NCBI GenBank assembly: GCA_046537785.1
Contig: JBKHKD010000002.1
Location: forward strand, 71,082-135,081
Direction of reading: 5' to 3'
Length of the DNA: 64,000 nt
Source: Actinomycetota bacterium
GTDB taxonomy: Bacteria; Actinomycetota; Acidimicrobiia; Spongiisociales; ZC4RG35
The notes below the pieces were generated by a model, which saw nothing but the letters and a program-made list of their open reading frames with translations, had not been told where the DNA came from and made no database searches. Below are positions 23,403-55,632 of this stretch, in pieces; the stretch's first letter is position 1, and every line of letters starts with the position of its first letter. The position numbers and the translations under genes were made by a program.

Positions 23403-26015
23403 GTGCCGACACTCGCGCTGATCGACGGCAATTCGATCGCCTATCGGGCGTTCTACGCCCTGCCCGAGGACCTGGCCACCAAGTCGGGCCAGGTCACCAA
23501 CGCCGTGTTCGGGTTCACCCGGATGCTGATCCGTCTGATGAAGGACTTTCATCCCGAAGGCGTGGCAGTTGCCTGGGATGTCTCGAGGAAGACCTTCCGC
23601 ACCGAGTCGTACCCCGAGTACAAGGCGAACCGGGAAAAGGCGCCCGACCACTTCCGCAGCCAGCTTCCGCTCATCGATGAAGTGCTCGAGTCCCTCCACA
23701 TCACCCAGCTCAAGGAGGAGGGCTACGAGGCGGATGACATCATCGCCTCGCTCACCCGTGAGGCGGTGGACGACGGCTGGGACGTTCTCATCGTCACCGG
23801 GGACCGGGACGCGTTCCAGCTCGTGGGAGGGCCGGTGAAGGTGCTCTACACCCGCCGTGGAATCAGCGACACGGTCCTCGCCGACAAAGAGTGGATCACC
23901 GAGAAGTACGGGATCTCGCCTTCCCAATACGTCGACTACGCCGCACTCCGGGGAGACAACTCCGACAACCTGCCCGGAGTCCCGGGAGTGGGGGAGAAGA
24001 CTGCCGCCAGGCTGATCTCCGAGTACGGGACCATCGAGGGGGTTTACACCGCCATCGCCGACCAGACTCCCAAGCTGCGGGAGAATCTCGCCGCCCACCG
24101 CGATCAGGTGTTTCTCAACAAGAAGCTGATGGCCCTGGTCGATGATCTCGACGTCCAATACGGCGCCAGCGACCTCGAGACACGGGAGTGGGATCGCAAA
24201 AGGGTCAAGGACCTTTTCGACAGTCTGGAGTTCCACACGATGTGGAACGACCTGGAGGAGGCGCTCCCGTCGACAGGCGGTGCCACCGAGATCCTGGACG
24301 TCGAATGTGAGTTGGTTACCACCGCCGAACGAATTTCCGAACTGGCCGACCGGGAGGAACTGGTCCTCAGTCTGGTCACCGACGCCGGCGAGAACTACGG
24401 CCTGGCGATCTCCACCGGAGATGACGAGGCGGTGGTCGTCCCGTTCGACAGCGCCGAGCCGATCCTCGTGGCGATCAGCGACGGGAAGGTGGCTGTTTCG
24501 GGCCATGACCTGAAGAGCCTCGCCAGGTCACTCCTCGAGATGGGCCACGACCTCACCACACCGGCAATGGACACCGCCCTTGCCTCGTATGTCGTCAACC
24601 CCAGCCAGCGCGACTACGGGCTCGAGGAGATCGCCGAGCGCCTCCTCGGCTTGGAGCTGGTGTCCCCGGACGACGAGGCAGAGGACGGCACCCTTCCCTT
24701 CGACCATGGGCCCGACGCCGACGTCGAGGGGAGACGGGTCGAGGCCACCCGCCGGCTGGTGGAACGGATGCGGAGCGAGCTGAAGGAACGCGACGAGCTC
24801 GACCTTTTCCTCACCTACGAGCTGCCGCTGGTACCGGTCCTCGCCAGGATGGAGCATGCCGGGATAGGAGTCGACCGGGATTATCTGGAGAAGATGGGCG
24901 CCGAGCTGCGGAGCCAGATCGCCGAGCTGGAGAAGAAGCTCCACGAGCTGGCCGGCGAGCCCTTCAACGTGAACTCCACCGACCAGCTGCGCACCATCCT
25001 CTTCGACGAGCTCGGGCTGCCGGTCATAAAGAAGACCTCCACCGGCAAACCGTCGACCGACGCGTCGGTCCTGAAGAAGCTGGACCACCCACTGGTGAGG
25101 ACCCTCCTCGAATACCGCGAGCTGGAGAAGCTCCGCTCCACCTATGTCGACGGATATCTGCCCCTCATCCACCCCGACGGGCGGATCAGGACCCGCTTCA
25201 ACCAGATGGCCGCCACGACCGGCCGTCTGTCGTCCGACAGCCCCAACCTCCAGAACATCCCGGTGCGTTCCGAGTCGGGTCGCACCATCCGCCGGGCGTT
25301 CATAGCCGGAGAGGGCAACGAGTTTCTCGTAGCCGACTACTCCCAGATCGAGCTGAGAGTGCTGGCCCATATGAGCGGGGACCCGTTCCTCATCGAGGCC
25401 TTCCAGTCGGGGCTCGACATCCACACCGCCACCGCCGCCAGGGTGTTCGGTGTCGGCACCGACGACGTCACCGCCGAGCAGCGTCGCCGGGCGAAGATGA
25501 TCAACTTCGGGCTTCTCTACGGGATGGAGGCCTTCGGGCTCGCCGACCGGCTGGGGATCAGCCGGGATGAGGCCCAGGAGCACATCGACGCCTACTTCGA
25601 CCAGTTCCAGGACGTCAAGGAGTACATGGCGTCGGTGGTGACCAGGGCACGCAACCAGGGCTACACGAAGACTCTCTTCGGGCGGAAGCGTTATCTCCCC
25701 GAGCTGAAGTCGGACAACTTCAGGATCCGCCAGATGGGAGAGAGGATGGCGCTCAACGCCCCGGTGCAGGGAACGGCCGCCGACATCATCAAATCGGCGA
25801 TGATCGAGCTCGACCGCATCCTCCGGGAGGAGAAGCTGGCCACCACTCTTTTGCTCCAGATACACGACGAGCTGATCCTCGAAGTCCCCTACGAGGAGAA
25901 GGAAATCGCCGAGAAACTCGTAGTGGAGACCATGGAGGGGGTCGCCGGCCTCGACGTCCCGCTGGTGGTCGACATCGGCTGGGGACCCGATCTCGCCTCC
26001 ATCGACAAGACATGA
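23403..26015 (+). CDS. polA: DNA polymerase I
   Basis: 870 aa with a 5'-3' exonuclease domain (IDGNSIAYRAFYAL) and polymerase motifs (DYSQIELR, QIHDEL). Confidence 0.95.
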   Translation: MPTLALIDGNSIAYRAFYALPEDLATKSGQVTNAVFGFTRMLIRLMKDFHPEGVAVAWDVSRKTFRTESYPEYKANREKAPDHFRSQLPLIDEVLESLHITQLKEEGYEADDIIASLTREAVDDGWDVLIVTGDRDAFQLVGGPVKVLYTRRGISDTVLADKEWITEKYGISPSQYVDYAALRGDNSDNLPGVPGVGEKTAARLISEYGTIEGVYTAIADQTPKLRENLAAHRDQVFLNKKLMALVDDLDVQYGASDLETREWDRKRVKDLFDSLEFHTMWNDLEEALPSTGGATEILDVECELVTTAERISELADREELVLSLVTDAGENYGLAISTGDDEAVVVPFDSAEPILVAISDGKVAVSGHDLKSLARSLLEMGHDLTTPAMDTALASYVVNPSQRDYGLEEIAERLLGLELVSPDDEAEDGTLPFDHGPDADVEGRRVEATRRLVERMRSELKERDELDLFLTYELPLVPVLARMEHAGIGVDRDYLEKMGAELRSQIAELEKKLHELAGEPFNVNSTDQLRTILFDELGLPVIKKTSTGKPSTDASVLKKLDHPLVRTLLEYRELEKLRSTYVDGYLPLIHPDGRIRTRFNQMAATTGRLSSDSPNLQNIPVRSESGRTIRRAFIAGEGNEFLVADYSQIELRVLAHMSGDPFLIEAFQSGLDIHTATAARVFGVGTDDVTAEQRRRAKMINFGLLYGMEAFGLADRLGISRDEAQEHIDAYFDQFQDVKEYMASVVTRARNQGYTKTLFGRKRYLPELKSDNFRIRQMGERMALNAPVQGTAADIIKSAMIELDRILREEKLATTLLLQIHDELILEVPYEEKEIAEKLVVETMEGVAGLDVPLVVDIGWGPDLASIDKT

Positions 26016-26185
26016 CCGACCGGCCAATGGGAGGTTTGCGGGGCGGCAGCTGCCGACCGACCGGCGTCTGTTTGGCCGACTTACGCAGGTCGTGACGGGC
26101 CGAACCGGCGTGGAATCCCGGGAGTGGCGAGAGTCGGCATGGCCCGGGAGACTGGCGGCCAAAGTCGGTCGGCCATCAAAACGGG

Positions 26186-26214
26186 TTGGCGAATGGTCCG
26201 TAGCTGCGTACACT
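26186..26214 (+). promoter_or_regulatory. Candidate sigma-70-like promoter for rpsA
   Basis: TTGGCG – 17 bp – TACACT about 60 bp upstream of the rpsA ATG. Visual match only. Confidence 0.3.
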
Positions 26215-26273
26215 TTCAATGCCTGCCGACCGGTGCGTTGGCAGAGATCTTCCCAAGAGGTAACTACCCACAC

Positions 26274-27788
26274 ATGTCCAACCCCCAAGAGAACGCGTCC
26301 GTAACCGCTCCGGATAACGAGGAGACGGTGGAGGCGCCCGAGACCCCGGCTGCTGACGAGGCCGCCGACGAAGCAGCCACCCCGGAGGAGTCAGTCGACA
26401 CTCCCACCCCCGAGTCTTCAGAGACAGACACCGAGGAGACCCCCGCCGAGTCGAGCGACGACGCCACAGCCGAGACGTCCGGAGACCCGGCCGGCGACTC
26501 CGGCCCCAGGTATCAGGAGCGAGAGGCCCTGGTCGCACCTGACCTGAGCGACCTTCCCGACGACATCGGCGACGACTTCGAGAAGGCCATCGAGGCCACC
26601 GTGCTCGAGTTCAAGGAAGGGGACATCGTCGAGGGGACCATCGTGAATGTCGACTCCGAGGGTGCCCTCGTCGACATCGGTTACAAGTCGGAGGGGTTCA
26701 TCCCCACCCGCGAGCTCTCCATCCGCAACAACATCGACCCCGAGGAGATGGTCTCCGTCGGAGACCGCGTGGAGTCGGTCGTTCTCGACAAGGAAGACGA
26801 CGAAGGCCGTCTCATCCTCTCCATGAAGCGGGCGATGTACGAGCGCGCCTGGGGTCGAATCCAGAAGGTGTCCGATGAGGAAGGCACTGTCGAGGGGACC
26901 GTCATCGAGGTCGTCAAGGGAGGTCTCATCGTCGACATCGGCCTGCGCGGCTTCCTTCCCGCCTCACTCGTCGACCTGAGACGGGTCCGGGATCTCGAGC
27001 CCTTCATCGGGCAGACGATCACCGCCAAGGTCATCGAGCTCGACCGGGCCAGGAACAACGTGGTCCTCTCCCGCCGGGCCCACCTCGAGGAGGCGCTCGC
27101 CGAGGAGCGGAACGAGTTCCTCGACAACCTCCAGGAGGGCGAGATCCGCGAGGGGAAGGTCTCGTCGGTGGTCAACTTCGGGGCCTTCGTCGACCTCGGC
27201 GGCATGGACGGCCTCGTGCACGTGTCCGAGCTCTCCTGGCAACACGTCAACCATCCGGGCGAGCTGGTGAGCGTCGGTGACGAGGTCAAGGTCAAGGTGC
27301 TCGAGGTCGACCGGGACCGTGAGCGCATCTCGCTGTCGATCCGCCAGACCACCGAGGACCCCTGGGATGTGTTCGCCAATGAGAACGAGGTCGGAGACAT
27401 CGTCGAGGGGACAGTCACCAAGACTGTGCCTTTCGGCGCGTTCGTATCGGTCGCCGACGGTGTCGAGGGACTGGTCCATGTGTCCGAGATCGCCATGCAT
27501 CGCGTCGAATCGCCGGAACTGGAGCTCTCCATCGGGCAGAAGGTCCGCGTGAAGATCACCGAAAAGGAAGACGAGCGGCGCCGGGTATCGCTCTCCATCA
27601 AGCAGGCTCTGCCCGACTACAACGAGAGGGCGGCTCAGACCGAGGAGAAGCGGAAGCCCCGCAAGGAGCGCGAGTTCGAGCGGGAGTTCGGTGCTGATGA
27701 TGAGGAAGAGCGTCCGCCGATGCCCGTGGATGCGTCCCTCGAGGCCATTCTCAAAGAACTGAAGGAACGTGGAATCGGTCGCCGGTAG
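26274..27788 (+). CDS. rpsA: 30S ribosomal protein S1 with an extended acidic N-terminus
   Basis: Four S1 repeats (GDIVEGTIVNVD…, GTVEGTVIEVVKGG…, GEIREGKVSSVVNFGAFV…, GDIVEGTVTKTVPFGAFV…). ATG 26274 is preceded by AAGAGG. About 110 aa of E/T/P/A/D-rich sequence precede the first S1 domain. Confidence 0.9.
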   Translation: MSNPQENASVTAPDNEETVEAPETPAADEAADEAATPEESVDTPTPESSETDTEETPAESSDDATAETSGDPAGDSGPRYQEREALVAPDLSDLPDDIGDDFEKAIEATVLEFKEGDIVEGTIVNVDSEGALVDIGYKSEGFIPTRELSIRNNIDPEEMVSVGDRVESVVLDKEDDEGRLILSMKRAMYERAWGRIQKVSDEEGTVEGTVIEVVKGGLIVDIGLRGFLPASLVDLRRVRDLEPFIGQTITAKVIELDRARNNVVLSRRAHLEEALAEERNEFLDNLQEGEIREGKVSSVVNFGAFVDLGGMDGLVHVSELSWQHVNHPGELVSVGDEVKVKVLEVDRDRERISLSIRQTTEDPWDVFANENEVGDIVEGTVTKTVPFGAFVSVADGVEGLVHVSEIAMHRVESPELELSIGQKVRVKITEKEDERRRVSLSIKQALPDYNERAAQTEEKRKPRKEREFEREFGADDEEERPPMPVDASLEAILKELKERGIGRR

Positions 27789-27809
27789 CTTCGATCGATA
27801 TGTCGACCT

Positions 27810-27842
27810 GAGAGCCCCCGGAATCGGAGTTCGGGGGCTCTC
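27810..27842 (+). terminator. GC-rich hairpin downstream of rpsA
   Basis: gagagcccccg – loop – cgggggctctc, an 11-bp perfect stem. No clear U-tract. Confidence 0.45.
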
Positions 27843-28062
27843 TGTAGATGAGGTGCCCGGAGCGTCTTTTCGGTCGGCAGTGGGCCTCGGTGCCCATAGA
27901 TTTGTGGGCCGAAAAACTCAAGACTGGCGTCTTCAGGTCCGACAATCACATGTGTTATCGAACCTGATAAGCAAGGCGGGTGCACGCTCGCCGTTACTAT
28001 GCCCTCTCTCCTCATCGCGGCAAGAGCGATGATCGAAGGAGGGGACAACCGAAGGGGACTCA

Positions 28063-28992
28063 ATGGGTAGGAGAGCAATAGTTCTTCTAGTGGCCTTGGT
28101 TTTGGCCGGATTGGCGGCTTGGGCCGTCTGGAACTTCATGCAGAACGTACGCGGTGAGGCCGAGGCCGGCCAGGAGCAGGTCACGGTTTTCCGCGCCGGC
28201 ACGGGTGGGGTCGCCGAAGGAACCGAAGGCAGCATCCTCCTGTCGGACTTCGAAGGTGGCGGAACACAGATCGTCGAGGGAACCGACGAGGTCGAGGACA
28301 CGCCCCCGGACGCCATCCAGTCCGAAGAGGAGCTTCGTAAGATACTCAGCGAACGCGTCGCGGCCGGCCCGATCTCCGAGCAAGCCATTCTGACCCGCTC
28401 CCAGTGGACCGAGGTGACCGTCGACGTGGAGCCTCTGGCCGATCAGATCGCATCGGGCAACCAGGCGATGACGATCTCGACCAGTGACGTCCAGGGCGTG
28501 AACGGTTTCGTCGAGGCCGGTGACCGGATCAACATGATCATCACCCTCGACATCGAGTTCGACAACATCCCGGTCGACGATGCCCCGGCTCTTCCCGACC
28601 CGGAAGACGAGGAAGAAGCGGAGGAGGAAGAGGAGACCGTCACCATTACCTACACCCGTTATGTGCTCCAGGGGCTCAACGTCCTTGCCGTGGGTCGTGA
28701 CGTCCGTGAAGAGGACGACGGTGACCAGACCGGTGAAATCGATGCCGACCAGGGTGCCGCCGAAGGCGAAGATGGCCAGGAGCAGGAAGGCGAAGAGCAG
28801 CAGGGCAACGACACGGTCTTCACTCTGGAGGTGACTCCGGACCAGGCCGAGCGTGTCGTCTACGCATTCCAGAATGGTTCGATCTGGCTTACCCTGGTGC
28901 CGGAAGATTTTGTTGAGATCGAGTCTGATGGTGTCACGATCGACAACCTGTTCGGGGGAGACCTCGTGGACTCGATCTTCGGAGACAACTAG
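28063..28992 (+). CDS. cpaB: Flp pilus assembly protein CpaB/RcpC-like (SAF domain) with acidic inserts
   Basis: N-terminal TM (AIVLLVALVLAGLAAWAVWNF), a SAF-like region, and a C-terminus VFTLEVTPDQAERVVYAFQNGSIWLTLVP typical of CpaB. D/E-rich low-complexity inserts. Confidence 0.7.
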   Translation: MGRRAIVLLVALVLAGLAAWAVWNFMQNVRGEAEAGQEQVTVFRAGTGGVAEGTEGSILLSDFEGGGTQIVEGTDEVEDTPPDAIQSEEELRKILSERVAAGPISEQAILTRSQWTEVTVDVEPLADQIASGNQAMTISTSDVQGVNGFVEAGDRINMIITLDIEFDNIPVDDAPALPDPEDEEEAEEEEETVTITYTRYVLQGLNVLAVGRDVREEDDGDQTGEIDADQGAAEGEDGQEQEGEEQQGNDTVFTLEVTPDQAERVVYAFQNGSIWLTLVPEDFVEIESDGVTIDNLFGGDLVDSIFGDN

Positions 28993-29010
28993 TTAGAGGA
29001 CAGATTTCTC

Positions 29011-30201
29011 ATGTCAATGGCCGAGCACAACCTCCTGGTCGTCGACCAGGACGACGACTTCGTCGCCAGCGCTAAGGAGCTGTTCGACGGAAGTCTTCCG
29101 GTTGCGCGCTCTCTCGAAGAGGCGAGTCAGACCGTGGCGTCCGGTGACGTCAGGATGATTCTCGTCGGCCCGTCCTACACCTCCGACGAAGCCATGGAAC
29201 AGATCCGTGAGCTCCACAATCAAGACCCGTCCCTGGTCTTGATGGTCGTGGCTGAGGAGGTGACGGCCGATCTGCTCCGCAAAGGCATGCGCTGTGGGGT
29301 CTCGGACGTGATCGAGTCGCCGCTGGACGAGGAGAAGATCGAGGCCGCTATCGAGCAGTTCGCCCACGACGTGCTTCACAGACGTTCGCCAGCGACGGCC
29401 GCACCACAGCCTTCAGGCGAAGAAGAGGGTGCCGAAGGCCGGATCATCACCGTGAGCTCGGCGAAGGGTGGCTCGGGCAAGACCGTTCTGGCAACGAATC
29501 TGGCTCTCGTGCTTCAGCGTCTGCCGGACACGAAAGTGTGTCTGGTCGACGCCGACCTCCAGTTCGGAGACGTCTGTCTGGTACTCCAGCTCGAGCCCCG
29601 CTTCACGATGGTCAACGCGGCCCACGAGTTGCATCATCTCGACGGTGAGCTGCTCGACTCCCTCCTCACCGAACATCCCAGCGGGCTGAAAGTGCTGGCC
29701 GCACCGTTGGAGCCGGCCTTCGCCGACGACATCACCACCGCCGGTCTGATGCAGATGCTCGACATCCTGAAGGAGAACTACGACTACGTGATAGTCGACA
29801 CGGCGGCGATGCTCGACGAGTTGATCCTGTCACTCATTGAGAAGTCCGACGACGTGCTCATGCTCGTCGACATGGACCTGCCTTCAGTCAAAAACGCCAA
29901 GCTCGCGCTCGAGACCCTCCGCCTCCTCAAGTTCTCCACCTCGAACGTGCAGTTGGTGATGAACAGGTCGAACTCCAAGGCCAAGCTGGACAACAAGGAA
30001 ATCGAAGGGGCCCTCAAGATGGAGATTGCAGCGTCGATACCTTCAGATGCGATCGTCGCCGCCTCGGTCAACGAGGGGCGTCCGGTCGTGGAAACGGATC
30101 CAAAATCTAAAGTAGCAAAGGGCTTCGAGTCAGTTGCCGAGCTGATCGCAGGCAAGATTCCAGAAGCCCAGTCAAAGTCCGGATTGTTCGGACGTAAGTA
30201 G
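29011..30201 (+). CDS. cpaE: Flp pilus assembly protein CpaE/TadZ
   Basis: N-terminal degenerate receiver-like domain plus a MinD/ParA-type ATPase. Deviant Walker A IITVSSAKGGSGKTVLATNLA. Confidence 0.8.
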   Translation: MSMAEHNLLVVDQDDDFVASAKELFDGSLPVARSLEEASQTVASGDVRMILVGPSYTSDEAMEQIRELHNQDPSLVLMVVAEEVTADLLRKGMRCGVSDVIESPLDEEKIEAAIEQFAHDVLHRRSPATAAPQPSGEEEGAEGRIITVSSAKGGSGKTVLATNLALVLQRLPDTKVCLVDADLQFGDVCLVLQLEPRFTMVNAAHELHHLDGELLDSLLTEHPSGLKVLAAPLEPAFADDITTAGLMQMLDILKENYDYVIVDTAAMLDELILSLIEKSDDVLMLVDMDLPSVKNAKLALETLRLLKFSTSNVQLVMNRSNSKAKLDNKEIEGALKMEIAASIPSDAIVAASVNEGRPVVETDPKSKVAKGFESVAELIAGKIPEAQSKSGLFGRK

Positions 30202-30215
30202 GGAAGGGGCCAGCA

Positions 30216-31571
30216 TTGCCATCACTATCTGAAAGAGTTGCAGCAGCCCGACAGACCGAGTCGTCAGACACGACCGTCAACAGGAGCGATGCGCTCAGTG
30301 ATTTGCGCGGCCGTCTCCACTTCAAGGTGGTCGAGGAACTCGGACCGACCCTGTACGACAGGGGGATGTCCGACGCCGAGCTTCGTCTCCGCGTGTTGGA
30401 GATGCTCGAGTGGGCGGTCGACCAGGAGCAGGGTCTTCCCCTCACCTCCGCCGACCGGCGCGCCCTCCTCAACGAGATCGCTTCGGACGTACTCGGCTAC
30501 GGTCCCATCGACCCGCTGCTCAACGACCCGGACGTCACCGAGGTCATGGCCAACGGGCCCTACGACATCTACTACGAGAAGAACGGCCGCATCCTGAAGT
30601 CGGATGTCCGGTTCGTGGACGAGACCCACCTGCGGCGCATCATCGACAAGATCGTCGGCCAGATCGGTCGTCGTGTCGACGAGGCGACCCCTATGGTGGA
30701 CGCCCGTCTCCCCGACGGCTCCCGTGTCAACGCCATCATCGCCCCGCTGGCGATCGGCGGGCCGTTCCTGACGATTCGTAAGTTCTCCGTCGACCCGTTC
30801 CAGGAGGCCGACCTGATCAGCTTCGGCACGCTGACCCAGCGTGTCGCCGACTTCCTACGGGCCTGTGTCCGGGGACGTCTCAACATCATCATTTCAGGCG
30901 GTACTGGCTCCGGTAAGACCACCACTCTCAACGTGGTGTCGGCATACATCCCCGGCGATGAGCGCATCATCACCGTGGAGGACGCCGCCGAGCTCCAGCT
31001 CCACCAGGAGCACGTGCTTTCGCTCGAGTCCCGCCCGGCCAACATCGAGGGCAAGGGTGCGGTGGAGATCCGTGACCTGGTGAAGAACTCCCTGCGTATG
31101 CGTCCCGACCGCATCGTCGTCGGTGAGGTTCGTGACGCCGCCGCCCTGGACATGCTCCAGGCCATGAACACCGGTCACGACGGGTCGCTGACCACCATCC
31201 ACTCCAATACCCCTCGTGACACCCTGTCCCGTATCGAGACCATGGTCATGATGGCCGGCTACGACCTGCCGGTCCGGGCCATTCGCGAGCAGGTGTCTTC
31301 GGCGGTCGACCTGATCGTCCACGTCTCCCGTCTCAAGGACGGCACCCGTAGGGTCACCCACGTGACCGAGGTGGAAGGCATGGAGGGCGAAGTCATCACC
31401 CTTCAGGACCTGTTCCTCTTCGACTACGGCATGGGCGTCGACGACGATGGCGTCTACAAGGGTCGCCTCAAGGCCACGGGAATCCGCCCCAGCTTCTCCG
31501 AGGACCTGGAGAACCAGGGCATCCGGCTTCCCGCCGACCTGTTCGACCCCGAGCCGTTCGCCCGCAGATGA
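30216..31571 (+). CDS. cpaF: Tad secretion ATPase CpaF/TadA
   Basis: Walker A GGTGSGKTTTLN, an Asp box, Walker B and a His box (TIHSNTPRDTL). TTG start with a GGGAAGGGG SD. Confidence 0.9.
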   Translation: MPSLSERVAAARQTESSDTTVNRSDALSDLRGRLHFKVVEELGPTLYDRGMSDAELRLRVLEMLEWAVDQEQGLPLTSADRRALLNEIASDVLGYGPIDPLLNDPDVTEVMANGPYDIYYEKNGRILKSDVRFVDETHLRRIIDKIVGQIGRRVDEATPMVDARLPDGSRVNAIIAPLAIGGPFLTIRKFSVDPFQEADLISFGTLTQRVADFLRACVRGRLNIIISGGTGSGKTTTLNVVSAYIPGDERIITVEDAAELQLHQEHVLSLESRPANIEGKGAVEIRDLVKNSLRMRPDRIVVGEVRDAAALDMLQAMNTGHDGSLTTIHSNTPRDTLSRIETMVMMAGYDLPVRAIREQVSSAVDLIVHVSRLKDGTRRVTHVTEVEGMEGEVITLQDLFLFDYGMGVDDDGVYKGRLKATGIRPSFSEDLENQGIRLPADLFDPEPFARR

Positions 31572-33523
31572 AGAAGCTCCTCGCGGTTGTCGCCGCGCTG
31601 TTCCTGGTCGCTCTACCCGCCTGGGGACAGACCGAATCCCAGGAAATCGAGATCGTCGACATCAACGGGTCGCGCTACCCCGAGGGTGGTCAGACCCAGA
31701 TGGTCATCGAGTTCCGCGACTTCGCCGAAGAGCCCGATCCCGAGGCTCTCGAGGTGACCGCCAACGGCGAGCCGGTGTCCGATCTGGTCGTCGAGCCCGT
31801 GGGCGCCTCCGCCGTGCCTGTCGGTGTGGTGCTGGCGATCGACACTTCCGGGTCGATGGAAGGCGAGCCCATAGCTGCGGCCATCAGCGCCGCGCAGAGC
31901 TTCGTCGACCAGGCCAGGGCCGAAGACCGCATTGCCCTGGTCACCTTCAATGATGAGGTGCAGGTTCTCTCCGGTTTCACCAACAACAAGCAGTCCCTCA
32001 ATTCCACTCTCGAGTCGATAACCGCCGAGGGTGAGACCGCATTCAACGACGGGGTAATCCGCGGCATCGAGATGTTCGAGGAACCCGGGGCGTCCAGCCT
32101 TCTCCCCAACATGATCGTTTTGACCGATGGCGAGGACACCGCTTCGGAGTCGTCTCTAGACGATGCCCTGGCGGCCGTCGACGGCACCGACGTACGTACT
32201 TTCTCCGTCGCCCTCGAGGGGTCTGATTTCAACCCCGAGGCTGTGGAGCAAGTGGCTACGGCTGGTGGCGGATTGTTCCTGTCGACACCCGATCCCGAGC
32301 AGCTTTCCCAGCTCTACACCGAGATCAGCCGGGAGATCAGCAACACCCTCGTGGCACGGTTCGTGTCGCCCATCTCGACACCGGGCGAGGTCGACTTCGA
32401 AGTCGGCTACGAGGGGCTGAGCTCGGCAGAGGTCTTCCCCGTCTCGGGCTATGAGGTCACGACTACAACGAGCGAGCCGGGCGAGACGACGACCACCACA
32501 TTGGCCCCATTGACGGGGACTGTCGTGGAGGGTGGGGCCGCACTGCCTCTGGATACTTTGATCCTGATCGGTGCGGCAGGTCTGGGCCTAACGTTGTTCC
32601 TGTTCCTGGTCATCCTGTTTGGCCGGGAGGAGGAAGACGAGCCCGGTCGTTTCGCCGCTCGTCTCCAGGCCTATGGGCGACGTGGCCAGCAGGAAGGGGA
32701 GGAGGAGAGGTCCTTACTGGAGCGCATCCCTCTGCTGAATCGATTCACCCAGGCGGCCGAGGAAGAGGTGCGGAGACGGGGGCTCCTATCCGGAGTCAAC
32801 TCGACGCTGGAGCAGGCAAACATTCCCATGACCGCCGGCGAGGCGATCCTCGGAATGATCGGGCTCTCCGCCGTGGGTGGGATCCTCGTCGGGATCTTCA
32901 ACGGCGCCATCACCGGGGCCATCGCTTTCGGCTTGTTCCTTATGTTGTCGGTGTTCCTGATCCGTTTCGCCGGCTCCCGGGAGAAGAGGAAGTTCGAGAA
33001 TCAGCTGCCCGACACTCTCACCCTCATGTCGACGTCGTTGCGGGCCGGTTACTCGCTGTTGCAAGCTACCGAGGCGGTGTCCAAGGAGTCGCCTAACCCC
33101 ACAGCCCGGGAGTTCGGCCGGGCCATCGCCGAGGCCCGGCTTGGCCGCTCGGTGACTGAGGCGTTGGAGGGGGTGGTGGAGCGGACCCAGTCAGAGGACT
33201 TCCAGTGGGCCGTCATGGCCATCGAGATCCAGCGTGAGGTCGGCGGTAACCTCGCCGAGGTGCTTCAGACCGTGGCCGACACCATGCGGGCACGAAACCG
33301 TCTCAAGGGCGAGATCAGGGCTCTCACTGCAGAGGGACGCATCTCCGCATTCGTCCTTGGGTCACTCCCATTCGCCATGTTTCTGTTCTTGTGGACCTCA
33401 AACCGTGACTATTTGCTTCCGCTGCTAGAGAACACCTTCGGAATCATTGCGATAATCATCGGAGTGATGCTGATGGCCGGTGGGATCTTCTGGCTCAAGA
33501 AGATCGTGGATATCGAGATATGA
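31568..33523 (+). CDS. Signal peptide plus von Willebrand factor A domain fused to a TadB-like inner-membrane platform protein
   Basis: N-terminus: signal peptide MKKLLAVVAALFLVALPAWGQ, then vWA with a MIDAS motif (VLAIDTSGSMEG … LTDGEDT). C-terminal roughly 320 aa: TM plus a GspF/TadB-like domain (PMTAGEAILGMIGL…, QLPDTLTLMSTSLRAGYS…). ATGA-coupled to cpaF. Confidence 0.75.
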   Translation: MKKLLAVVAALFLVALPAWGQTESQEIEIVDINGSRYPEGGQTQMVIEFRDFAEEPDPEALEVTANGEPVSDLVVEPVGASAVPVGVVLAIDTSGSMEGEPIAAAISAAQSFVDQARAEDRIALVTFNDEVQVLSGFTNNKQSLNSTLESITAEGETAFNDGVIRGIEMFEEPGASSLLPNMIVLTDGEDTASESSLDDALAAVDGTDVRTFSVALEGSDFNPEAVEQVATAGGGLFLSTPDPEQLSQLYTEISREISNTLVARFVSPISTPGEVDFEVGYEGLSSAEVFPVSGYEVTTTTSEPGETTTTTLAPLTGTVVEGGAALPLDTLILIGAAGLGLTLFLFLVILFGREEEDEPGRFAARLQAYGRRGQQEGEEERSLLERIPLLNRFTQAAEEEVRRRGLLSGVNSTLEQANIPMTAGEAILGMIGLSAVGGILVGIFNGAITGAIAFGLFLMLSVFLIRFAGSREKRKFENQLPDTLTLMSTSLRAGYSLLQATEAVSKESPNPTAREFGRAIAEARLGRSVTEALEGVVERTQSEDFQWAVMAIEIQREVGGNLAEVLQTVADTMRARNRLKGEIRALTAEGRISAFVLGSLPFAMFLFLWTSNRDYLLPLLENTFGIIAIIIGVMLMAGGIFWLKKIVDIEI

Positions 33524-34455
33524 GCGCCTTCGACCCAATCCTCATCGCCGTTGTGGCCGTCTTCGCCCTGGTCCTGTTCGTGGTCGTCTGGGTGGGGATG
33601 GGTGTTACCCAAGCGCGTGAGGACATGGCCAACCGGTTGGAGCTCTACGGCCGGGACACCGTCGCTGGCGCCCGCGAGGACGAGTTGGCCAAACCTCTGG
33701 CGCAGCGGACTGTAGGCCCTGTCGTCATCAGGTTGGGCAACTTCCTGAAGCGATTCACCCCGGTCGGGTATCTGGAAAAAAAACAGCGCAAGCTGATGCT
33801 CGCGGGCTATCCGGGTAATCTAGATGCTCCGGCATTCACGGTGGTGAAGCTGCTTACCACTGCCCTCGGTCTGGGTGCGGCGTTTGTTCTTATCGATCTT
33901 GGCGCCGATGCGCTCCAGCAGGTCGTGTTATTCGCTTTGCCCATCGCCCTTGGATTCTTCGGACCCGACGCATGGTTAGAACGCAAAGTCGGTGATCGGC
34001 GACAGGCGATGTTGCGTTCACTACCCGACATACTCGACTTGTTAGTGATTTCGGTTGAGGCGGGTCTCGGTTTCGACTCTGCGCTGGCCCGTGTCGTCGC
34101 GACAGTTCCGGGGCCGTTGTCGGAGGAGTTCTACAGAATGCTCCAGGAGACTCGAGTCGGTGTTAGTCGTCGCGACGCAATGAGACACCTCTCGGAACGG
34201 ACCGACCTCGAGGAACTGAGATCGTTCCTCTTGGCCATGATCCAGGCGGAGGCTTTCGGTGTCACCATCGCCAGAGTTCTGCGGGTGCAGGCCGACGAGA
34301 TGCGTGTCAAGAGGCGGCAGCGGGCGCAGGAGAAGGCGTTCGCCGCTCCGGTGAAACTGGTTTTCCCTCTCGTGTTCTGCATCTTTCCGTCGTTGTTCAT
34401 AGTTCTTCTCGGTCCGGCTGCGATCCAGATCGCTGAAGCCTTCGCTTCGACATGA
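33520..34455 (+). CDS. tadC: TadC-like platform protein (GspF-family)
   Basis: 311 aa. TM, then a GspF-like domain (LPDILDLLVISVEAGLGFDSALARV), then TMs. ATGA-coupled. Confidence 0.75.
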   Translation: MSAFDPILIAVVAVFALVLFVVVWVGMGVTQAREDMANRLELYGRDTVAGAREDELAKPLAQRTVGPVVIRLGNFLKRFTPVGYLEKKQRKLMLAGYPGNLDAPAFTVVKLLTTALGLGAAFVLIDLGADALQQVVLFALPIALGFFGPDAWLERKVGDRRQAMLRSLPDILDLLVISVEAGLGFDSALARVVATVPGPLSEEFYRMLQETRVGVSRRDAMRHLSERTDLEELRSFLLAMIQAEAFGVTIARVLRVQADEMRVKRRQRAQEKAFAAPVKLVFPLVFCIFPSLFIVLLGPAAIQIAEAFAST

Positions 34456-35798
34456 CCGGGACGGCCGCGCACGGGGCGCGGCGTCTCTCCATTTCTCATC
34501 TCGCCCTCCTGGTCCCTTGGGTGGCGCTGGTCATCGACGCGTTTCAGCCGATCGGGGACAATTCGTTCCTCTGGCACGTTCGTGCGGGCACCTTGCAGGC
34601 AGGACGCGCAGAAGTTCTCACGTCGGACCCCTTCTCATTCACGATGTCGGGAGAGCCATGGCGTACTCAGAGCTGGCTGGCGGAGCTCCTCTATGGGTGG
34701 GGAGAGAACATGTTCGGATTGGGTTACGTCCCCTACATGATCCTTCTCGTTGGGACGCTCACATTCATTGGCATTGGCCTGCTCGCCTATCTCCACTCGA
34801 GGAGCGTGCCTGCGACCGCGTTTGTTCTGGTTCTGGCTGTCCTGGCCTTGATCAGTTTCCTGGTGCCGCGGCCCGTCATTCTCTCCTATCTTCTCATGGT
34901 GCTGGTGATCCTCGCCTGGGATCAACCGGCCACGCGATGGACAATTCCCTTGCTGTTTTGGATTTGGGCCTCGGTTCACGCCAGTTTCGTCATAGGTCTC
35001 CTATACGTGGGTGTGACGCTCATCATGAGGAAGAATTGGCGTCTGCTTCCCGTAGCGGTGGTTGGTGGGGTGGCAACGCTGGCAACAGCGCACGGTCTCG
35101 GGGTGGTGTCGTTCCTTCTCGACTTCGGGCAGAACAGCGACGTCCTCCAGTATCTGACCGAGTGGCGCGATCCCGAGTTGTTCGAGCCGGTGTTTCTCCC
35201 CTTTGCCGGTTCAATCGTCTTTATTGTCATCGGGGCGTTTCGGGACCGGATCTCGCCCCGCCATCTCTGGTTGTTGGTCCCGTTCCTAGCTCTAGGGCTG
35301 AGTTCGGTCCGTGCCATACCTCCGGCATTTCTCGGCCTGATTCCGCTGGTAGCCATCTCTCTGTCAGGCCTTCAGATTGGCACGCGAGCGGGTCTACGCC
35401 CTCAGCTGGCTGCGATATTTGCCCTCGTGGTTCTGTTCATACCATGGCTGTTGACTTCAGGCACCGGTCTATCCGAAGAACGGTTTCCTCTGGAAGCCAC
35501 TGCGAGTCTGGGCGCCGTGCCCACATTCCACGATGATCGCGTGGGCGGCTATCTGATATGGGCGCTTGGCCCGGACCGGAAGGTCTACATCGATGACCGG
35601 GCCGAGCTCTATGGCGGTCGGATGGCCGAATTCGTTGCTGTGCGGCGCGGGGAGACTCCTTGGGAGCCCGTCTTCGAACGTGATGGAATCGAACAGGCCG
35701 TGCTAGCGAACGGCGAACGGTTGGTGGATGAGCTGCGTTCGTCGGGGTGGATTGAAGTGCACGCCGATGAGCATTTCACGGTCCTTCGCCCAGGGTGA
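34452..35798 (+). CDS. Polytopic membrane protein of unknown function, last gene of the tad operon
   Basis: 448 aa with 10 or more TM helices and a roughly 100-aa soluble C-terminal domain. ATGA-coupled to tadC. No family recognised by eye. Confidence 0.55.
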   Translation: MTGTAAHGARRLSISHLALLVPWVALVIDAFQPIGDNSFLWHVRAGTLQAGRAEVLTSDPFSFTMSGEPWRTQSWLAELLYGWGENMFGLGYVPYMILLVGTLTFIGIGLLAYLHSRSVPATAFVLVLAVLALISFLVPRPVILSYLLMVLVILAWDQPATRWTIPLLFWIWASVHASFVIGLLYVGVTLIMRKNWRLLPVAVVGGVATLATAHGLGVVSFLLDFGQNSDVLQYLTEWRDPELFEPVFLPFAGSIVFIVIGAFRDRISPRHLWLLVPFLALGLSSVRAIPPAFLGLIPLVAISLSGLQIGTRAGLRPQLAAIFALVVLFIPWLLTSGTGLSEERFPLEATASLGAVPTFHDDRVGGYLIWALGPDRKVYIDDRAELYGGRMAEFVAVRRGETPWEPVFERDGIEQAVLANGERLVDELRSSGWIEVHADEHFTVLRPG

Positions 35799-35825
35799 GC
35801 CAGCAAGGCCACGTTGGTGGTGACA

Positions 35826-35860
35826 AGAAAAAGGGGCCCGGCTAAGCGGGCCCCTTTCCG
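35826..35860. terminator. Bidirectional intrinsic terminator between the tad operon and the flp genes
   Basis: aaaaaggggcccg-gctaa-gcgggcccctttcc: a GC stem flanked by an A-tract on one side and a T-tract on the other. Confidence 0.6.
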
Positions 35861-35873
35861 TCTAGTTGGTTGA

Positions 35874-36053
35874 CTACGTCTGGTCGAGACCAGAAGCGAT
35901 GTCACTGAACGTTCCGGACACCTCTTCACCGGCGAGTGCGACGGCGACGAGAGCGATGATGGCGATCAGCACCACGAGTAGAGCGTACTCCACCATGGAA
36001 GCGCCCTTCTCATTGTCCATCCAGGTCTTTACCTTGGTCCACAGAGCAAGCAT
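35874..36053 (-). CDS. flp: Flp-family type IVb prepilin
   Basis: 59-aa product MLALWTKVKTWMDNEKGAS|MVEYALLVVLIAIIALVAVALAG…: Flp motif G/(A)SxxEY followed by a hydrophobic stretch. SD AAGGAGG lies 5 nt upstream of ATG 36053. Confidence 0.75.
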   Translation of the reverse strand: MLALWTKVKTWMDNEKGASMVEYALLVVLIAIIALVAVALAGEEVSGTFSDIASGLDQT

Positions 36054-36147
36054 TGACCCCTCCTTGGGTTGTCGTACATGGGCTTGCAGTGGGCAAATTA
36101 GCCCACAAGTATCCGGAGACAATGGGTCTCCGGAATCATGAGAAATG

Positions 36148-36333
36148 TCAAGGACCGGCTTCCACCAGGCCGGAGCCGATCTCCGAGTAGGTCGAAGAGA
36201 GCTCGGTACCTGCCAGTTCCACTGCCACGAGGGCAACGATGGCTATGAGAACCGCGAGCAGCCCGTATTCGGCCATCGAGGCGCCCCGGTCATCGAATCG
36301 AAGCTTCTGATATAGACGTATCAACAAACTCAA
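36148..36333 (-). CDS. flp: Flp-family type IVb prepilin, tandem paralog
   Basis: …RFDDRGAS|MAEYGLLAVLIAIVALVAVELAG… The TTG start is uncertain by two or three codons. Confidence 0.7.
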   Translation of the reverse strand: MSLLIRLYQKLRFDDRGASMAEYGLLAVLIAIVALVAVELAGTELSSTYSEIGSGLVEAGP

Positions 36334-36409
36334 ACCTCTGTTATTGCTGTTGTCAGCGTAAGACCGAACGCGGGCGTTGCTGATAGGTCGCAGGGCTTAT
36401 TGGTTTCGG

Positions 36410-37048
36410 TCAATGCGGTCGGGCGATTCCGAGCTTGATCGCTTCGATCGCGGCCTGAGTGCGATCACTTACTGCCAGTTTCTGGAATATCGAGGCCAAA
36501 TGATTCTTGACGGTCTTCTGCGATATGTACAGCCGATCGGCCAGCTCGTCGGTGGCAGAGACGCCTATGGCGAGTAGCTGGAGGATTTCCCGCTCCCGCG
36601 GGGTGAGAGAGGCGGCGCCAGGATCGAGTTCCGCTTCCCCGTAGCTCTCCAGCAAGGAGTCGCGTTCCTCGTCATTCAGTTCGATGAGGTTCTGTCCGTC
36701 GGCAACGGCACGGACGGCGGATGCCAGAGTGCCGAGGGGGACAGCCTTGGAGAAGAAGCCGACGGCTCCCGCCTCGACTGCTCGCTTCTTCTGCTCGTCG
36801 TTGGCGTACATGGAGACGACGATCGCCTTGGATCGCCGTCCCAGTTTGGCAATCGTCTCGATTCCGTCTCCGCCGGGCATCTCGATGTCCACGATGGAGA
36901 CCTCGGCGGGCTGGCTCTCCAGAAGGGAATCGAGCTCAGGACCTGAATTGACGACACCCACCACCCTGGCGTCGGGGAGACTGTTGAGAGCCTGACTAAG
37001 GCCTTCAGCAAACAGTTGATGATCGTCGGCGATCATGACTCGAATCAT
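36410..37048 (-). CDS. NarL/LuxR-family response regulator
   Basis: REC domain (IADDHQLF…DIEMPGGDG) plus a LuxR HTH (LTPREREILQLLAIGVSATDELADRLYISQKTVKNH). Start at MIRVMIADD gives a 4-nt ATGA-type overlap with the kinase stop. Confidence 0.85.
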   Translation of the reverse strand: MIRVMIADDHQLFAEGLSQALNSLPDARVVGVVNSGPELDSLLESQPAEVSIVDIEMPGGDGIETIAKLGRRSKAIVVSMYANDEQKKRAVEAGAVGFFSKAVPLGTLASAVRAVADGQNLIELNDEERDSLLESYGEAELDPGAASLTPREREILQLLAIGVSATDELADRLYISQKTVKNHLASIFQKLAVSDRTQAAIEAIKLGIARPH

Positions 37049-38547
37049 CGCGACCCCCATTCAACCGTCACCGCGGTGCCAACCCCCGGCTTTGAGTCGA
37101 ATTTGATGGTTGCACCGATCTTCGACGCTCTTTCCCTCATCCCCATGAGGCCGTAATGGCCCTCAGGCTCGTGTTCGGGGTCGAATCCGACACCGTCGTC
37201 AACGACGGAACAGGAACCGTATGCACGATCGATCTGCCCTGAGATCACCACCATGGTTGCTTCAGAGTGCTGATGGGCGTTGCGGGCTGCTTCGGCGATG
37301 ATCGAGGTCAGGTCTCCGATCAGTGTCGGGCGGGGTGGGCGACGTTCCTCTAAGTCGACGATTACCGGAGGATCGCCATCGAGAGTCGAAGAGGCCTGGA
37401 GTACCCTTGCTGTCAAGGTTGGGCCTGGGGCATTCCGGAGATCTGCAACGGAGGCGCGGACGTCTTCGACCAGCTTGGTGACGTTGGACCGGAGCACCTG
37501 GAGGTCGGCCGCCACCTCGGGGTGGTCGGATTGCTGCATCGCTGTCATGTCGAGTGCGAGGCCCAGGGATGCGAGTGACGGGCCGATCTCGTCGTGCATT
37601 TCCCGGGCGAGCCTGACTCGCTCCTCGGCCACCGCAGACCCGACGATTTCCTGAAGCAGTTGCAGATTGGCGAAAGCGACACTCACAGGGTGGATGATCG
37701 CCGCCACCTGGGCGAGATCGCCAGGGGACATAGCGTGTGGTGTGGTCAGTTCCAGGTTCCCGACCTTTGTGTCGGAAGTGGAAAGCGGTAGGTCGTAGAC
37801 GTGTCCGTTCTCCTCCGGGATTCCACGAGCGGCGAGGACGACTGTCCCTTGGTCTCCTTCGATGGCGAGCTTGCCGGCAGATCCGGGGAAGCGCTCGAGA
37901 ATCGTCTCGAGCGTGTCGGCTCCTACCTCCGTCGCATTGAGGCGCCCCGCCGACACGTCCTCCGAAAGTCGGAGCAGAACACTGTGAATCTCCTCGAGTC
38001 GCTCCAGACGCTTGGTCGCTGACTCCTTTTCCTCGGCCAGGCTGGTGGCCTGCGCGTGGATGTCCTCGAGGAGACGGCGAATGACGCCTACCAATAGGAC
38101 GAAGATCAGATAGAGAGCGATGGCTGGAGCCGTGCCTACGAGCGAATCTCCATTCGCCAGGCTCACGAGAGCTAGGAGCGCTCCGGCCAGAACACCCGTG
38201 GTCAGGCCAGTACGGAGCCCGCCATAGATGGTTGCGAAAACCGGGGGCCCCATAGAGAGGAGCAGGTAGGCGCTGTTGGCGCCTCCGGTGAGAGTCATGG
38301 CGATGAGCACGACCACGGCGCTCAGCAGGCAGATCGCTTCGACTCCGAAACGACGCCAGAACCATGCTTCCGGGATGAGTGTGGTGCCGATAACGTAGGC
38401 GCCCGCGATGCCCATTGCAGCCAGTGATTGGGCGGAACCGCTGCTCTGGACGAGTGAGGAGACGATGCCGACGGTGAGGGCCACCCATTGGCCGATTACT
38501 ACGGTGCGATGGACGCGGGTCTCCCAGGGAGCCGGTGTGGCTAGCAT
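37045..38547 (-). CDS. Sensor histidine kinase (HisKA_3 type) with a multi-TM N-terminal sensor
   Basis: About 6 TM segments, then LAREMHDEIGPSLASL (HisKA_3 H-box) and an HATPase_c domain. Confidence 0.85.
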   Translation of the reverse strand: MLATPAPWETRVHRTVVIGQWVALTVGIVSSLVQSSGSAQSLAAMGIAGAYVIGTTLIPEAWFWRRFGVEAICLLSAVVVLIAMTLTGGANSAYLLLSMGPPVFATIYGGLRTGLTTGVLAGALLALVSLANGDSLVGTAPAIALYLIFVLLVGVIRRLLEDIHAQATSLAEEKESATKRLERLEEIHSVLLRLSEDVSAGRLNATEVGADTLETILERFPGSAGKLAIEGDQGTVVLAARGIPEENGHVYDLPLSTSDTKVGNLELTTPHAMSPGDLAQVAAIIHPVSVAFANLQLLQEIVGSAVAEERVRLAREMHDEIGPSLASLGLALDMTAMQQSDHPEVAADLQVLRSNVTKLVEDVRASVADLRNAPGPTLTARVLQASSTLDGDPPVIVDLEERRPPRPTLIGDLTSIIAEAARNAHQHSEATMVVISGQIDRAYGSCSVVDDGVGFDPEHEPEGHYGLMGMRERASKIGATIKFDSKPGVGTAVTVEWGSR

Positions 38548-38571
38548 GATCGAAGGCTACCGTCCTGCCTC

Positions 38572-39150
38572 GTGACTTATCAGGAGCATCGTTGGATCCT
38601 CAGTGGTGGTCTCGCCTCCGGCAAGAGCCAGGTGAGGCGGTTGCTCGAGGAGCACGGATTTCACACGATCGACGCGGATCGGGTCGGTCACGACGTCCTG
38701 CGATCCGAGGGTCCTGCTTTCGACGAGGTCGTCACTCGCTGGCCCGACATTGTCGCGGACGGCGAGGTCGACCGCCGCGCCCTGGCTGCGGTCGTGTTCA
38801 ACGATCCAGTGGAACTCGCTGCGTTGGAGGCGATTACACACCCTCATATCTTCGACATGATCAATGCCCGGGTGGAGGATGTTGACGAAGCCGTGGTGGT
38901 CGAGGTTCCGGTTCTCGGGCACTCACTTGGCCCCGATTGGCGCAGGATCGTCGTCGATTGCCGGGACGAAATCCGTCTCGAGCGCGCAATCAGCCGTGGA
39001 ATGGCCGCGGCAGATGCTCAGGCGAGGATGGCATCTCAGCCGTCCCGAGCCGAATGGCTTGCGGTGGCGGACGTCGTGCTGCCGAACACCGGCACACTCC
39101 TGGACCTCCGACACACGGTGGACCGATGGACGAGCGTGACAGGTGTTTAG
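38572..39150 (+). CDS. coaE: Dephospho-CoA kinase
   Basis: P-loop GGLASGKS followed by a CoaE-like body; 192 aa; GTG start. Confidence 0.8.
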   Translation: MTYQEHRWILSGGLASGKSQVRRLLEEHGFHTIDADRVGHDVLRSEGPAFDEVVTRWPDIVADGEVDRRALAAVVFNDPVELAALEAITHPHIFDMINARVEDVDEAVVVEVPVLGHSLGPDWRRIVVDCRDEIRLERAISRGMAAADAQARMASQPSRAEWLAVADVVLPNTGTLLDLRHTVDRWTSVTGV

Positions 39151-40655: not shown

Positions 40656-40705
40656 CCGACTCCATCGTTGAGAATCAGTCTCACCCCCTCGCTACTCTGC
40701 GGAGA

Positions 40706-55631: not shown

Positions 55632-55632
55632 C

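Follow-up and report, generated by a model that had tools for sequence, protein, structure and literature searches.

Published models of the tight adherence (Tad) pilus machine draw its membrane platform as three TadB-TadC heterodimers beneath the CpaF hexamer (PMC12307814, PMC13170226), and a TadA6:B3:C3 stoichiometry is reported for Pseudomonas (PMC12307814). A survey of type IV filaments assigns one T2SSF domain each to TadB and TadC and describes many actinobacterial systems without identifiable minor pilins (PMC6668835). The von Willebrand factor A (VWA) domains of characterised Tad systems are carried on TadG/CpaL-type pseudopilins (PMC12607857, PMC13170226). Caulobacter CpaL combines a pilin-like module with a VWA domain containing a MIDAS, or metal ion-dependent adhesion site (PMC12607857), and has been modelled together with CpaJ/K atop the (CpaG-CpaH)3 platform before extension (PMC13170226). 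The VWA modules of PilY1, PilB and CpaL have roles in priming, adhesion or sensing (PMC12607857). Here we describe vwa-tadB, a gene that joins a MIDAS-type VWA domain to the platform protein TadB itself. It is located in a 64-kb stretch of contig JBKHKD010000002.1 from the class Acidimicrobiia; this whole stretch is called the window and all positions are given in its numbering.

The gene is an unbroken ATG-to-TGA open reading frame (ORF) whose product runs, from N- to C-terminus, through a signal peptide, an ectodomain made up of a VWA domain and a beta-sandwich, a disordered Thr/Pro-rich linker, a transmembrane (TM) helix and a complete TadB-type domain. Its parts are listed below with the evidence for each, including an AlphaFold2 (AF2) model scored by the predicted local distance difference test (pLDDT).

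31568..33523, + strand: vwa-tadB, the whole fused gene, 651 amino acids plus stop; Pfam VWA and T2SSF matches, full-length homologues, AF2 mean pLDDT 87
31568..31627, + strand: signal peptide, residues 1-20 (MKKLLAVVAALFLVALPAWG, predicted cleavage before Q21); hydropathy and a heuristic (-3,-1) site
31628..31822, + strand: pre-VWA beta-strands, residues 21-85, probably one half of the flanking beta-sandwich
31823..32323, + strand: VWA domain, residues 86-252, with D92/S94/S96 at 31841-31855, T157 at 32036-32038 and D187 at 32126-32128
32324..32455, + strand: post-VWA beta-strands, residues 253-296, probably the second sandwich half; AF2 strands 260-266, 273-281 and 284-292
32456..32539, + strand: Thr/Pro-rich flexible linker, residues 297-324; sequence and pLDDT <50
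32540..32623, + strand: TM1, residues 325-352, the stop-transfer anchor, equal to the N-terminal TM of canonical TadB; hydropathy and AF2 helix 328-351
32624..33520, + strand: TadB core, residues 353-651; Pfam T2SSF, hydropathy, charge bias and AF2

Pfam places a VWA match at residues 87-251 (E 2e-17, 64 bits against a cut-off of 23.8), accompanied by a VWA_2 match (E 1.4e-15), and a single T2SSF domain (PF00482) at residues 484-608 (E 5.7e-22, 78.5 bits against a gathering cut-off of 25.2). The complete MIDAS signature, D92-T-S94-G-S96 followed by T157 and D187, can be read from the sequence. The N-terminal module is a MIDAS-type VWA by its above-threshold profile match, its Rossmann-like alpha/beta fold and the full DxSxS...T...D motif, and binding of a cation and a carboxylate at the MIDAS is its predicted function. 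By the features that sequence can address, namely T2SSF score, locus context and predicted topology, the remainder is a TadB/CpaG protein, comprising a cytoplasmic loop, a TM2-TM3 hairpin (426-474), a cytoplasmic T2SSF bundle (475-590) and two C-terminal TMs. In the N-terminus, MKKLLAVVAALFLVALPAWG/Q, a basic n-region is combined with a hydrophobic core, and the site PAWG/Q carries small residues at positions -3 and -1. Lipoprotein or Tat export is ruled out, the protein having neither a lipobox Cys nor a twin-Arg motif. The linker begins with the Thr-rich run TTTTSEPGETTTTT at residues 297-310.

The VWA domain of vwa-tadB is predicted to sit outside the cell. By hydropathy, the signal-like N-terminus is followed by a strong TM (about 325-352), a pair of TMs (about 426-470) and two more at the C-terminus. 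In the AF2 model, which was built from a 70-sequence alignment, residues 26-292 have pLDDT values above 93, strands 26-77 and 260-292 flank a classical alpha/beta VWA, and linker residues 300-325 are disordered (pLDDT <50). Helix 328-351 of the model represents TM1, helices 423-445 and 447-492 form the hairpin running into the cytoplasmic T2SSF bundle, and helices 562-611, 613-621 and 623-647 make up the end of the bundle and the C-terminal membrane part. Three membrane crossings are found between VWA and T2SSF, and T2SSF must be cytoplasmic because it engages the ATPase. The 304-residue N-terminal domain contains 55 Asp and Glu, only 9 Lys and Arg and no Cys, and Lys and Arg are enriched in the loops assigned to the cytoplasm, as expected from positive-inside bias. 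The extracytoplasmic placement follows from the agreement of crossing parity, signal peptide and charge bias. A cytoplasmic, ArnB-like VWA was considered since ArnB is the best sequence match in the PDB, and is ruled out by the conserved signal peptide, the three crossings before T2SSF and the charge bias. The closest unfused relative (P0163, 339 amino acids), which shares 52% identity over residues 334-651, has its start about 14 residues ahead of the equivalent TM, so that the fusion lengthens an N-terminus already facing outward. This anatomy agrees in every element with that given by an earlier, sequence-only reading of the window, which had called a Sec-type signal peptide (borne out by hydropathy and the (-3,-1) heuristic), a VWA domain with intact MIDAS (Pfam VWA and D92/S94/S96/T157/D187), a Thr-rich linker followed by a TM (the run at 297-310 and the TM at about 325-352) and a full TadB-like domain (Pfam T2SSF 484-608); the hidden Markov model domain scan that it suggested finds VWA and T2SSF within one ORF. 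It had also put the VWA on the extracytoplasmic face, with a cytoplasmic VWA named as a possible refutation. Signal peptide, TM parity and charge bias uphold the former, and a cytoplasmic VWA is not what topology prediction gives. Its term "secreted" holds in part: the domain is exported but stays membrane-tethered and is not released.

The fused gene recurs widely in Actinomycetota. A search of 5.8 billion proteins with vwa-tadB as query returned 614 matches. Among the 120 matches listed, identities are 69-90% and all but one truncated entry are about 640-655 amino acids long with VWA and T2SSF; they stem from NCBI, JGI, ENA and Logan assemblies. Counted as clusters formed at 90% identity, carriers of the full-length architecture number more than 120. 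From an exhaustive HMMER scan of 1.84 billion representatives of 50% identity clusters we took the best 150 matches, 137 of which are 600-700 amino acids long, nearly all matching end to end in a single stretch at 30-45% identity. The fused family comprises at least 12 subclades at 35% average identity, the query clade being a small one. Twelve species-representative genomes (Acidimicrobiia or Actinomycetota metagenome-assembled genomes (MAGs), one a complete 2.3-Mb chromosome) carry vwa-tadB in the conserved order polA-rpsA-cpaB-cpaE-cpaF-vwa_tadB-tadC-(mem448)-flp-flp-RR-HK-coaE-uvrB, where RR and HK denote a response regulator and a histidine kinase, and the synteny from polA to uvrB persists around a vwa-tadB orthologue of only 47% identity. 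In 10 or more Acidimicrobiia MAGs the synteny is identical. Named carriers are the cultured Egicoccus halophilus, two more Egicoccus strains and a Euzebyales MAG, and further carriers are many Acidimicrobiia/Acidimicrobiales and unclassified Actinomycetota MAGs. The family spans two Actinomycetota classes, Acidimicrobiia and Nitriliruptoria, and is large, not rare.

As full-length homologues and synteny recur in independent assemblies, a frameshift or misassembly is excluded for practical purposes. The probability that a secreted VWA gene and tadB were joined artificially is negligible, given that hundreds of independent assemblies of differing studies and technologies show a continuous ORF, without a start or stop of its own for either gene at the junction, and that both halves are under purifying selection in one frame. 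The architecture itself is almost certainly genuine. The sequence-only reading had allowed for just such an artificial fusion of two genes and had suggested a survey of TadB homologues for N-terminal VWA fusions; with the fusion present in a cultured isolate, a complete chromosome and many assemblies the artefact fails as an explanation, and the survey has turned up a large family. That reading had placed known VWA domains on TadG-type pseudopilins, in agreement with PMC12607857 and PMC13170226, and had been aware of no description of the present architecture. Our full-text literature search likewise found no description of a VWA domain on a platform protein, and the type IV filament survey (PMC6668835) does not mention a VWA fusion. 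Database entries give members of the family only generic names, "type II secretion system F family protein", "VWA domain-containing protein" or "tight adherence protein B". A few database entries (P0126, P0139 and P0043) contain one half only and may be truncated gene calls.

Conservation in the ectodomain is concentrated on the metal site. Among 138 family members D92 is found in 100%, S94 in 95%, S96 in 95%, T157 in 91% and D187 in 93%, and G188, D190 and S193 are likewise conserved. By hydropathy, 134 of the 138 relatives have a signal-like N-terminus and 137 a TM between VWA and TadB core; a permissive heuristic finds small residues at -3/-1 in 137/138 and a basic n-region in 134/138. A loose regular expression flags twin-Arg-like n-regions in 29/138. 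Averaged over 69 homologues spanning the family, identity to the query differs strongly by region.

T2SSF bundle: mean identity 60%
VWA: mean identity 38%
pre-VWA strands: mean identity 26%
post-VWA strands: mean identity 21%
linker: mean identity 16%, with 29% of alignment positions gapped

Linkers of the family are rich in Pro, Ala, Val, Thr and Ser and variable in length. Pairwise comparison with six orthologues puts the ratio of nonsynonymous to synonymous substitution rates (dN/dS) at about 0.14-0.28 in the ectodomain and at about 0.10-0.15 in the TadB half, values that are rough with dS near saturation. Sequence comparison thus indicates purifying selection on both halves of vwa-tadB, with ectodomain constraint centred on the MIDAS.

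The TadB half of the protein resembles TadB/CpaG in its single T2SSF, in its gene slot between the CpaF/TadA ATPase and a paralogous tadC, and in its predicted topology, where an N-out TM and a cytoplasmic loop are followed by a TM hairpin, a cytoplasmic helical bundle and the C-terminal TMs; over residues 389-651 it is 37-39% identical to unfused actinobacterial TadB proteins. Unlike canonical TadB, which has about 300-320 amino acids and begins at the TM, vwa-tadB adds a signal peptide, a VWA/beta-sandwich module of about 275 residues and a tether. With CpaL/TadG proteins (Caulobacter; Arthrobacter pYA7-1b) it shares a MIDAS-type VWA in the extracytoplasmic part of a Tad machine. CpaL/TadG proteins, however, have a pilin-like N-terminus (PF13400, class III signal) and presumably depart with the pilus tip, whereas vwa-tadB has a Sec signal peptide, no pilin module and a permanent platform tether. 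In addition, a large beta-rich insert splits the CpaL VWA, while that of vwa-tadB is compact. Membership of vwa-tadB in the TadG/CpaL group is rejected, there being no PF13400 or PF07811 match and no pilin-like N-terminus. PilY1 and Streptococcus sanguinis PilB belong to type IVa pilus machines, whose platform protein PilC does not carry the module; there it is part of a pilin or of a protein located at the tip. Fold searches with the vwa-tadB VWA return generic VWA matches including Catenulispora 4fx5, archaeal ArnB/VWA2, ITIH1/ITIH4, integrin beta and BatB, whose likeness in the VWA-plus-beta-sandwich arrangement is one of fold only; no pilus platform contains any of them. ArnB is a cytoplasmic protein, and ITIH and the integrins come from eukaryotes. 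BatA/BatB-type membership was also rejected on NCBIfam cut-offs (VWA_BatA_Lepto 28 bits against 380, acidobact_VWFA 53 against 81; the likeness to 3ibs is at fold level). The origin of the VWA module is not readable from fold alone.

The remaining genes of the locus are further Tad assembly genes, two Flp pilin genes, a two-component pair and one unannotated gene.

28063..28992, + strand: cpaB/rcpC, the first operon gene; Pfam RcpC E 2.4e-21, NCBIfam pilus_cpaB 81 bits against 71, syntenic in loci L001-L012
29011..30201, + strand: cpaE/tadZ, a ParA/MinD-type ATPase with an N-terminal REC-like domain; Pfam AAA_31, ParA and CbiA
30216..31571, + strand: cpaF/tadA, the motor ATPase; Pfam T2SSE E 8.4e-64, NCBIfam TadA-family 329 bits
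33520..34455, + strand: tadC, the paralogous platform subunit; Pfam T2SSF E 5.7e-20
34452..35798, + strand: mem448, an unannotated polytopic membrane protein of 448 amino acids; no family match, overlaps tadC
35874..36107, - strand: flp pilin 1, G/ASMVEY motif, start probably an ATG near 36053; Pfam Flp_Fap 36 bits, motif scan
36148..36333, - strand: flp pilin 2, G/ASMAEY motif; Pfam Flp_Fap 35 bits, motif scan
36410-37060, - strand: LuxR/GerE-type response regulator; domains called from the syntenic L018 orthologue (Response_reg and GerE)
37045-38547, - strand: histidine kinase; domains called from the syntenic L018 orthologue (HisKA_3 and HATPase_c)

Overlaps of 4 nt (ATGA) are present at three junctions, cpaF/vwa-tadB, vwa-tadB/tadC and tadC/mem448. 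The flp genes of the window are located downstream of mem448 on the strand opposite to the assembly operon. In the window CpaE the Response_reg match covers residues 9-115 at 25 bits, below cut-off; the REC plus ParA architecture is called confidently in L015. The response regulator/kinase pair is syntenic in L001-L009, and GerE-type pairs also flank the operon in L013 (Egicoccus) and L015, a recurrent adjacency that suggests dedicated regulation. The whole Tad locus (28063-38547) is embedded in the housekeeping block polA-rpsA ... coaE-uvrB (23403-42712). This setting is the same in every related Acidimicrobiia genome examined, which suggests that the locus is a stable part of the chromosome in this lineage rather than a mobile island.

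The distribution of VWA domains and pseudopilins differs between related operons. A Pfam scan of about 55 ORFs finds no TadE, TadG-like protein or prepilin peptidase in the window operon or elsewhere in the 64 kb, a tblastn search of the window with Egicoccus TadE/TadG yields no pseudopilin, and a scan for class III signal motifs leaves only the two Flp genes as pilin candidates, a third match at 62931 falling inside an unrelated ORF. E. halophilus and three other subclades possess the operon flp(-flp)-TadE-TadG-like-RcpC-CpaE-CpaF-VWA_TadB-TadC. The TadG-like proteins of these four fused-TadB operons (343-541 amino acids) have only the pilin-like PF13400 N-terminus, and in none of them is a VWA found even at E <= 0.1. 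Among unfused actinobacterial operons the closest one, on Arthrobacter plasmid pYA7-1b, encodes a 489-amino-acid TadG-like protein with a VWA. No fused TadB was found by tblastn among the 325 TadB-matching records of the plasmid database PLSDB. Variants of about 860-900 amino acids (P0136, P0132, P0321-P0324), of which one comes from a Euzebyales MAG, carry the whole [beta-sandwich-VWA] unit duplicated in tandem before the TM, and the MIDAS signature is retained in both modules in most of them; in the one genomic context examined, the two-module gene of P0321 (L019, 3404-6073) occupies the same operon position. A MAG with a protein labelled Gammaproteobacteria (L018; GCA_011682695.1, JAACED010000004.1) carries a fused gene 54% identical to that of the window in exact window synteny. 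This label is doubtful because the synteny is exactly actinobacterial, and it is probably a binning or labelling error.

We propose, with a probability of roughly 0.4, that at the pilus base the VWA domain of vwa-tadB serves to dock or capture a pilus component in a metal-dependent manner. The short extracytoplasmic N-terminus of TadB is replaced in vwa-tadB by an exported VWA module on a tether of about 28 residues and, as the published platform contains three TadB-TadC heterodimers, three such leashed modules would surround the point where the pilus exits the membrane of each machine. A tethered module could not travel with the pilus. It is because the module would stay put, and because only the metal site is strongly conserved while surface, tether length and copy number vary, that we propose the role of a metal-dependent catcher. 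The MIDAS ion would bind a carboxylate on a pilus-base component, either the Flp fibre or the TadE/TadG priming/tip complex, and the captured component would be held or positioned over the platform during initiation and after retraction. The platform would then supply a VWA function that is elsewhere placed on a tip pseudopilin (CpaL/TadG, PilB) or on PilY1. As possible partners of the VWA, the sequence-only reading had suggested pilin, tip protein and cell wall. Related operons, in what is a small sample, show the VWA on TadG, on TadB or on neither, which supports the docking model.

Several observations weigh against this proposal. The Flp pilins of Egicoccus carry no acidic residue after Glu5, which disfavours a conserved acidic MIDAS ligand on exposed Flp, and a ligand in the tip complex cannot be assumed in the window clade given that TadE and TadG are missing from the operon and the 64 kb. 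The Pseudarthrobacter plasmid pACHL01 has the gene order of the fused family with an unfused TadB of 309 amino acids, and no VWA is detected in the proteins scanned there (TadE, the TadG-like protein, TadB and one downstream gene). A strict rule by which the VWA moved from TadG to TadB is weakened by this VWA-less operon of the same gene order. P0234 (353 amino acids, 46% identical to the TadB half) has no VWA: a signal peptide with a stub of some 12 residues is all that precedes the TM, and the protein looks, as a single sequence, like a derivative that lost the domain. Since the Pseudarthrobacter operon and P0234 do without it, the VWA is accessory and not essential to the machine. Fold searches give no specific tie of the vwa-tadB VWA to pilus-tip VWAs of the SpaC, RrgA, Mfa5 or PilB type. 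Finally, a long flexible tether and tandem duplication would be just as suitable for binding a diffuse target, for instance a wall polymer.

Such a wall target is the basis of a somewhat unlikely alternative, an envelope anchor or spacer in which the VWA metal site binds peptidoglycan, a teichoic-acid-like polymer or another wall glycopolymer and so fixes or spaces a secretin-less machine relative to the wall. In diderm bacteria this task falls to the connection of secretin and RcpC. No secretin gene is present in any fused-TadB locus examined, while CpaB/RcpC is found in every one of them. A flexible, length-variable Pro/Thr-rich tether would suit an anchor, as would the tandem modules of the forms with about 890 amino acids, which would extend its reach, although a single module with its tether of about 28 residues may be too short to bridge the inner wall zone. 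The very acidic ectodomain (55 Asp and Glu against 9 Lys and Arg) and its fast-evolving surfaces beyond the MIDAS are in keeping with a wall ligand, but known VWA/MIDAS ligands are mostly protein carboxylates and Pfam detects no LysM, SLH or PG_binding domain in vwa-tadB. Current type IV pilus models propose rotation of the platform during assembly, and a static wall tie on a rotating TadB would wind up or block the platform.

A sensory or regulatory role, in which the VWA would report pilus tension, a retracted tip or external divalent cations via TadB to CpaF, CpaE and the two-component system, much as in the mechanosensing suggested for PilY1 and CpaL, is unlikely. The VWA domains of PilY1 and CpaL have been implicated in surface sensing (PMC12607857), but the query ectodomain contains no Cys and the family averages 0.06 Cys per ectodomain, so that a force-sensing Cys pair like that of PilY1 is lacking. 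The flanking of the VWA by a beta-sandwich recalls integrin beta and ITIH1, where this arrangement relays conformational change; a disordered tether of about 28 residues would however be a poor allosteric conduit and would leave tension alone as a signal. Possible receivers are at hand in the REC-like N-terminal domain of CpaE and in the GerE-type response regulator/kinase pair, which adjoins the operon in the window clade and at least two other subclades, yet this adjacency is not universal (L016, L017).

It is distinctly doubtful that the platform-borne VWA goes beyond docking and replaces the minor-pilin/tip-adhesin priming complex in the window clade. This idea is raised because that clade is without TadE/TadG in the operon and the 64 kb while its MIDAS-VWA is under purifying selection. 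If it were true, three tethered VWAs would nucleate, cap or re-capture the Flp fibre, and priming would take place from the platform side without dedicated pseudopilins. A free-standing surface adhesin that uses TadB merely as an anchor and has no part in the pilus machine is very improbable: VWA/MIDAS is a common bacterial adhesin module and the ectodomain evolves faster than the TadB half, but the partner is always TadB and never TadC or an unrelated anchor across at least 12 subclades below 35% identity, a single module, with its roughly 270 residues and short tether, is too small to extend past a Gram-positive wall, and the start and stop of the gene overlap its operon neighbours.

Of the core parts of type IV filament machines, the platform proteins (PilC/GspF/TadB-TadC) are, to our knowledge, the least well understood, and they are generally drawn with almost nothing outside the membrane. 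VWA domains have so far been described on proteins that ride at the tip (PilY1, PilB, CpaL/TadG), and the tether to TadB raises the possibility of VWA work at the pilus base. The family could offer a handle on the outside contacts of the platform through its defined metal site, its detachable ectodomain and its variants with one, two or no modules, and its presence in the cultured E. halophilus makes it experimentally testable. The secretin-less Tad machines of monoderm Actinomycetota are almost unstudied. The architecture is a widespread, unreported variation on a known component. It neither amounts to a new type of system nor overturns the known mechanism.

The gene mem448, which follows tadC, probably serves these Tad operons in an accessory role that has gone unrecognised. 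Its product has about 10 hydrophobic segments and a soluble C-terminal part and has no Pfam, NCBIfam or PDB sequence match; a single-sequence AF2 model was unusable (pLDDT 45). The gene is kept after tadC in L001-L007, and homologues are found in the same position in L018 (453 amino acids, 42% identical) and in the distant L016 (12852-14372, 27% identical). The Arthrobacter Tad operon is instead trailed by GT2/GtrA and GT39 (PMT_2) glycosyltransferases, which may hint at a glycosylation role.

Between uvrB (40544-42712) and uvrA (59755-62577) the window contains about 17 kb of glycan and phosphonate genes (about 42958-59796), which probably make a phosphonate-decorated surface glycan. Besides the genes listed here, the block holds a GFO/IDH oxidoreductase and several proteins without family match; the final row is a separate gene between coaE and uvrB.

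42958-44532, - strand: sulfatase-family membrane protein
44641-45951: fusion of a cytidylyltransferase and a phosphoenolpyruvate mutase
45948-47057: thiamine pyrophosphate-dependent decarboxylase
47050-48165: Fe-alcohol dehydrogenase
49313-50860: second sulfatase-family membrane protein
51290-53484: GT2 glycosyltransferases
54528-55631: DegT aminotransferase
55633-56199: hexapeptide acyltransferase
39147-40655, - strand: membrane protein of 502 amino acids between coaE and uvrB; weak PigN/DUF6057/phosphodiesterase-like matches only

The 502-amino-acid membrane protein was detected in L001 and not in the other syntenic loci, and is therefore regarded as a variable insertion. There is overlap between its ORF and the uvrB start as annotated, and the real uvrB start is probably further downstream.

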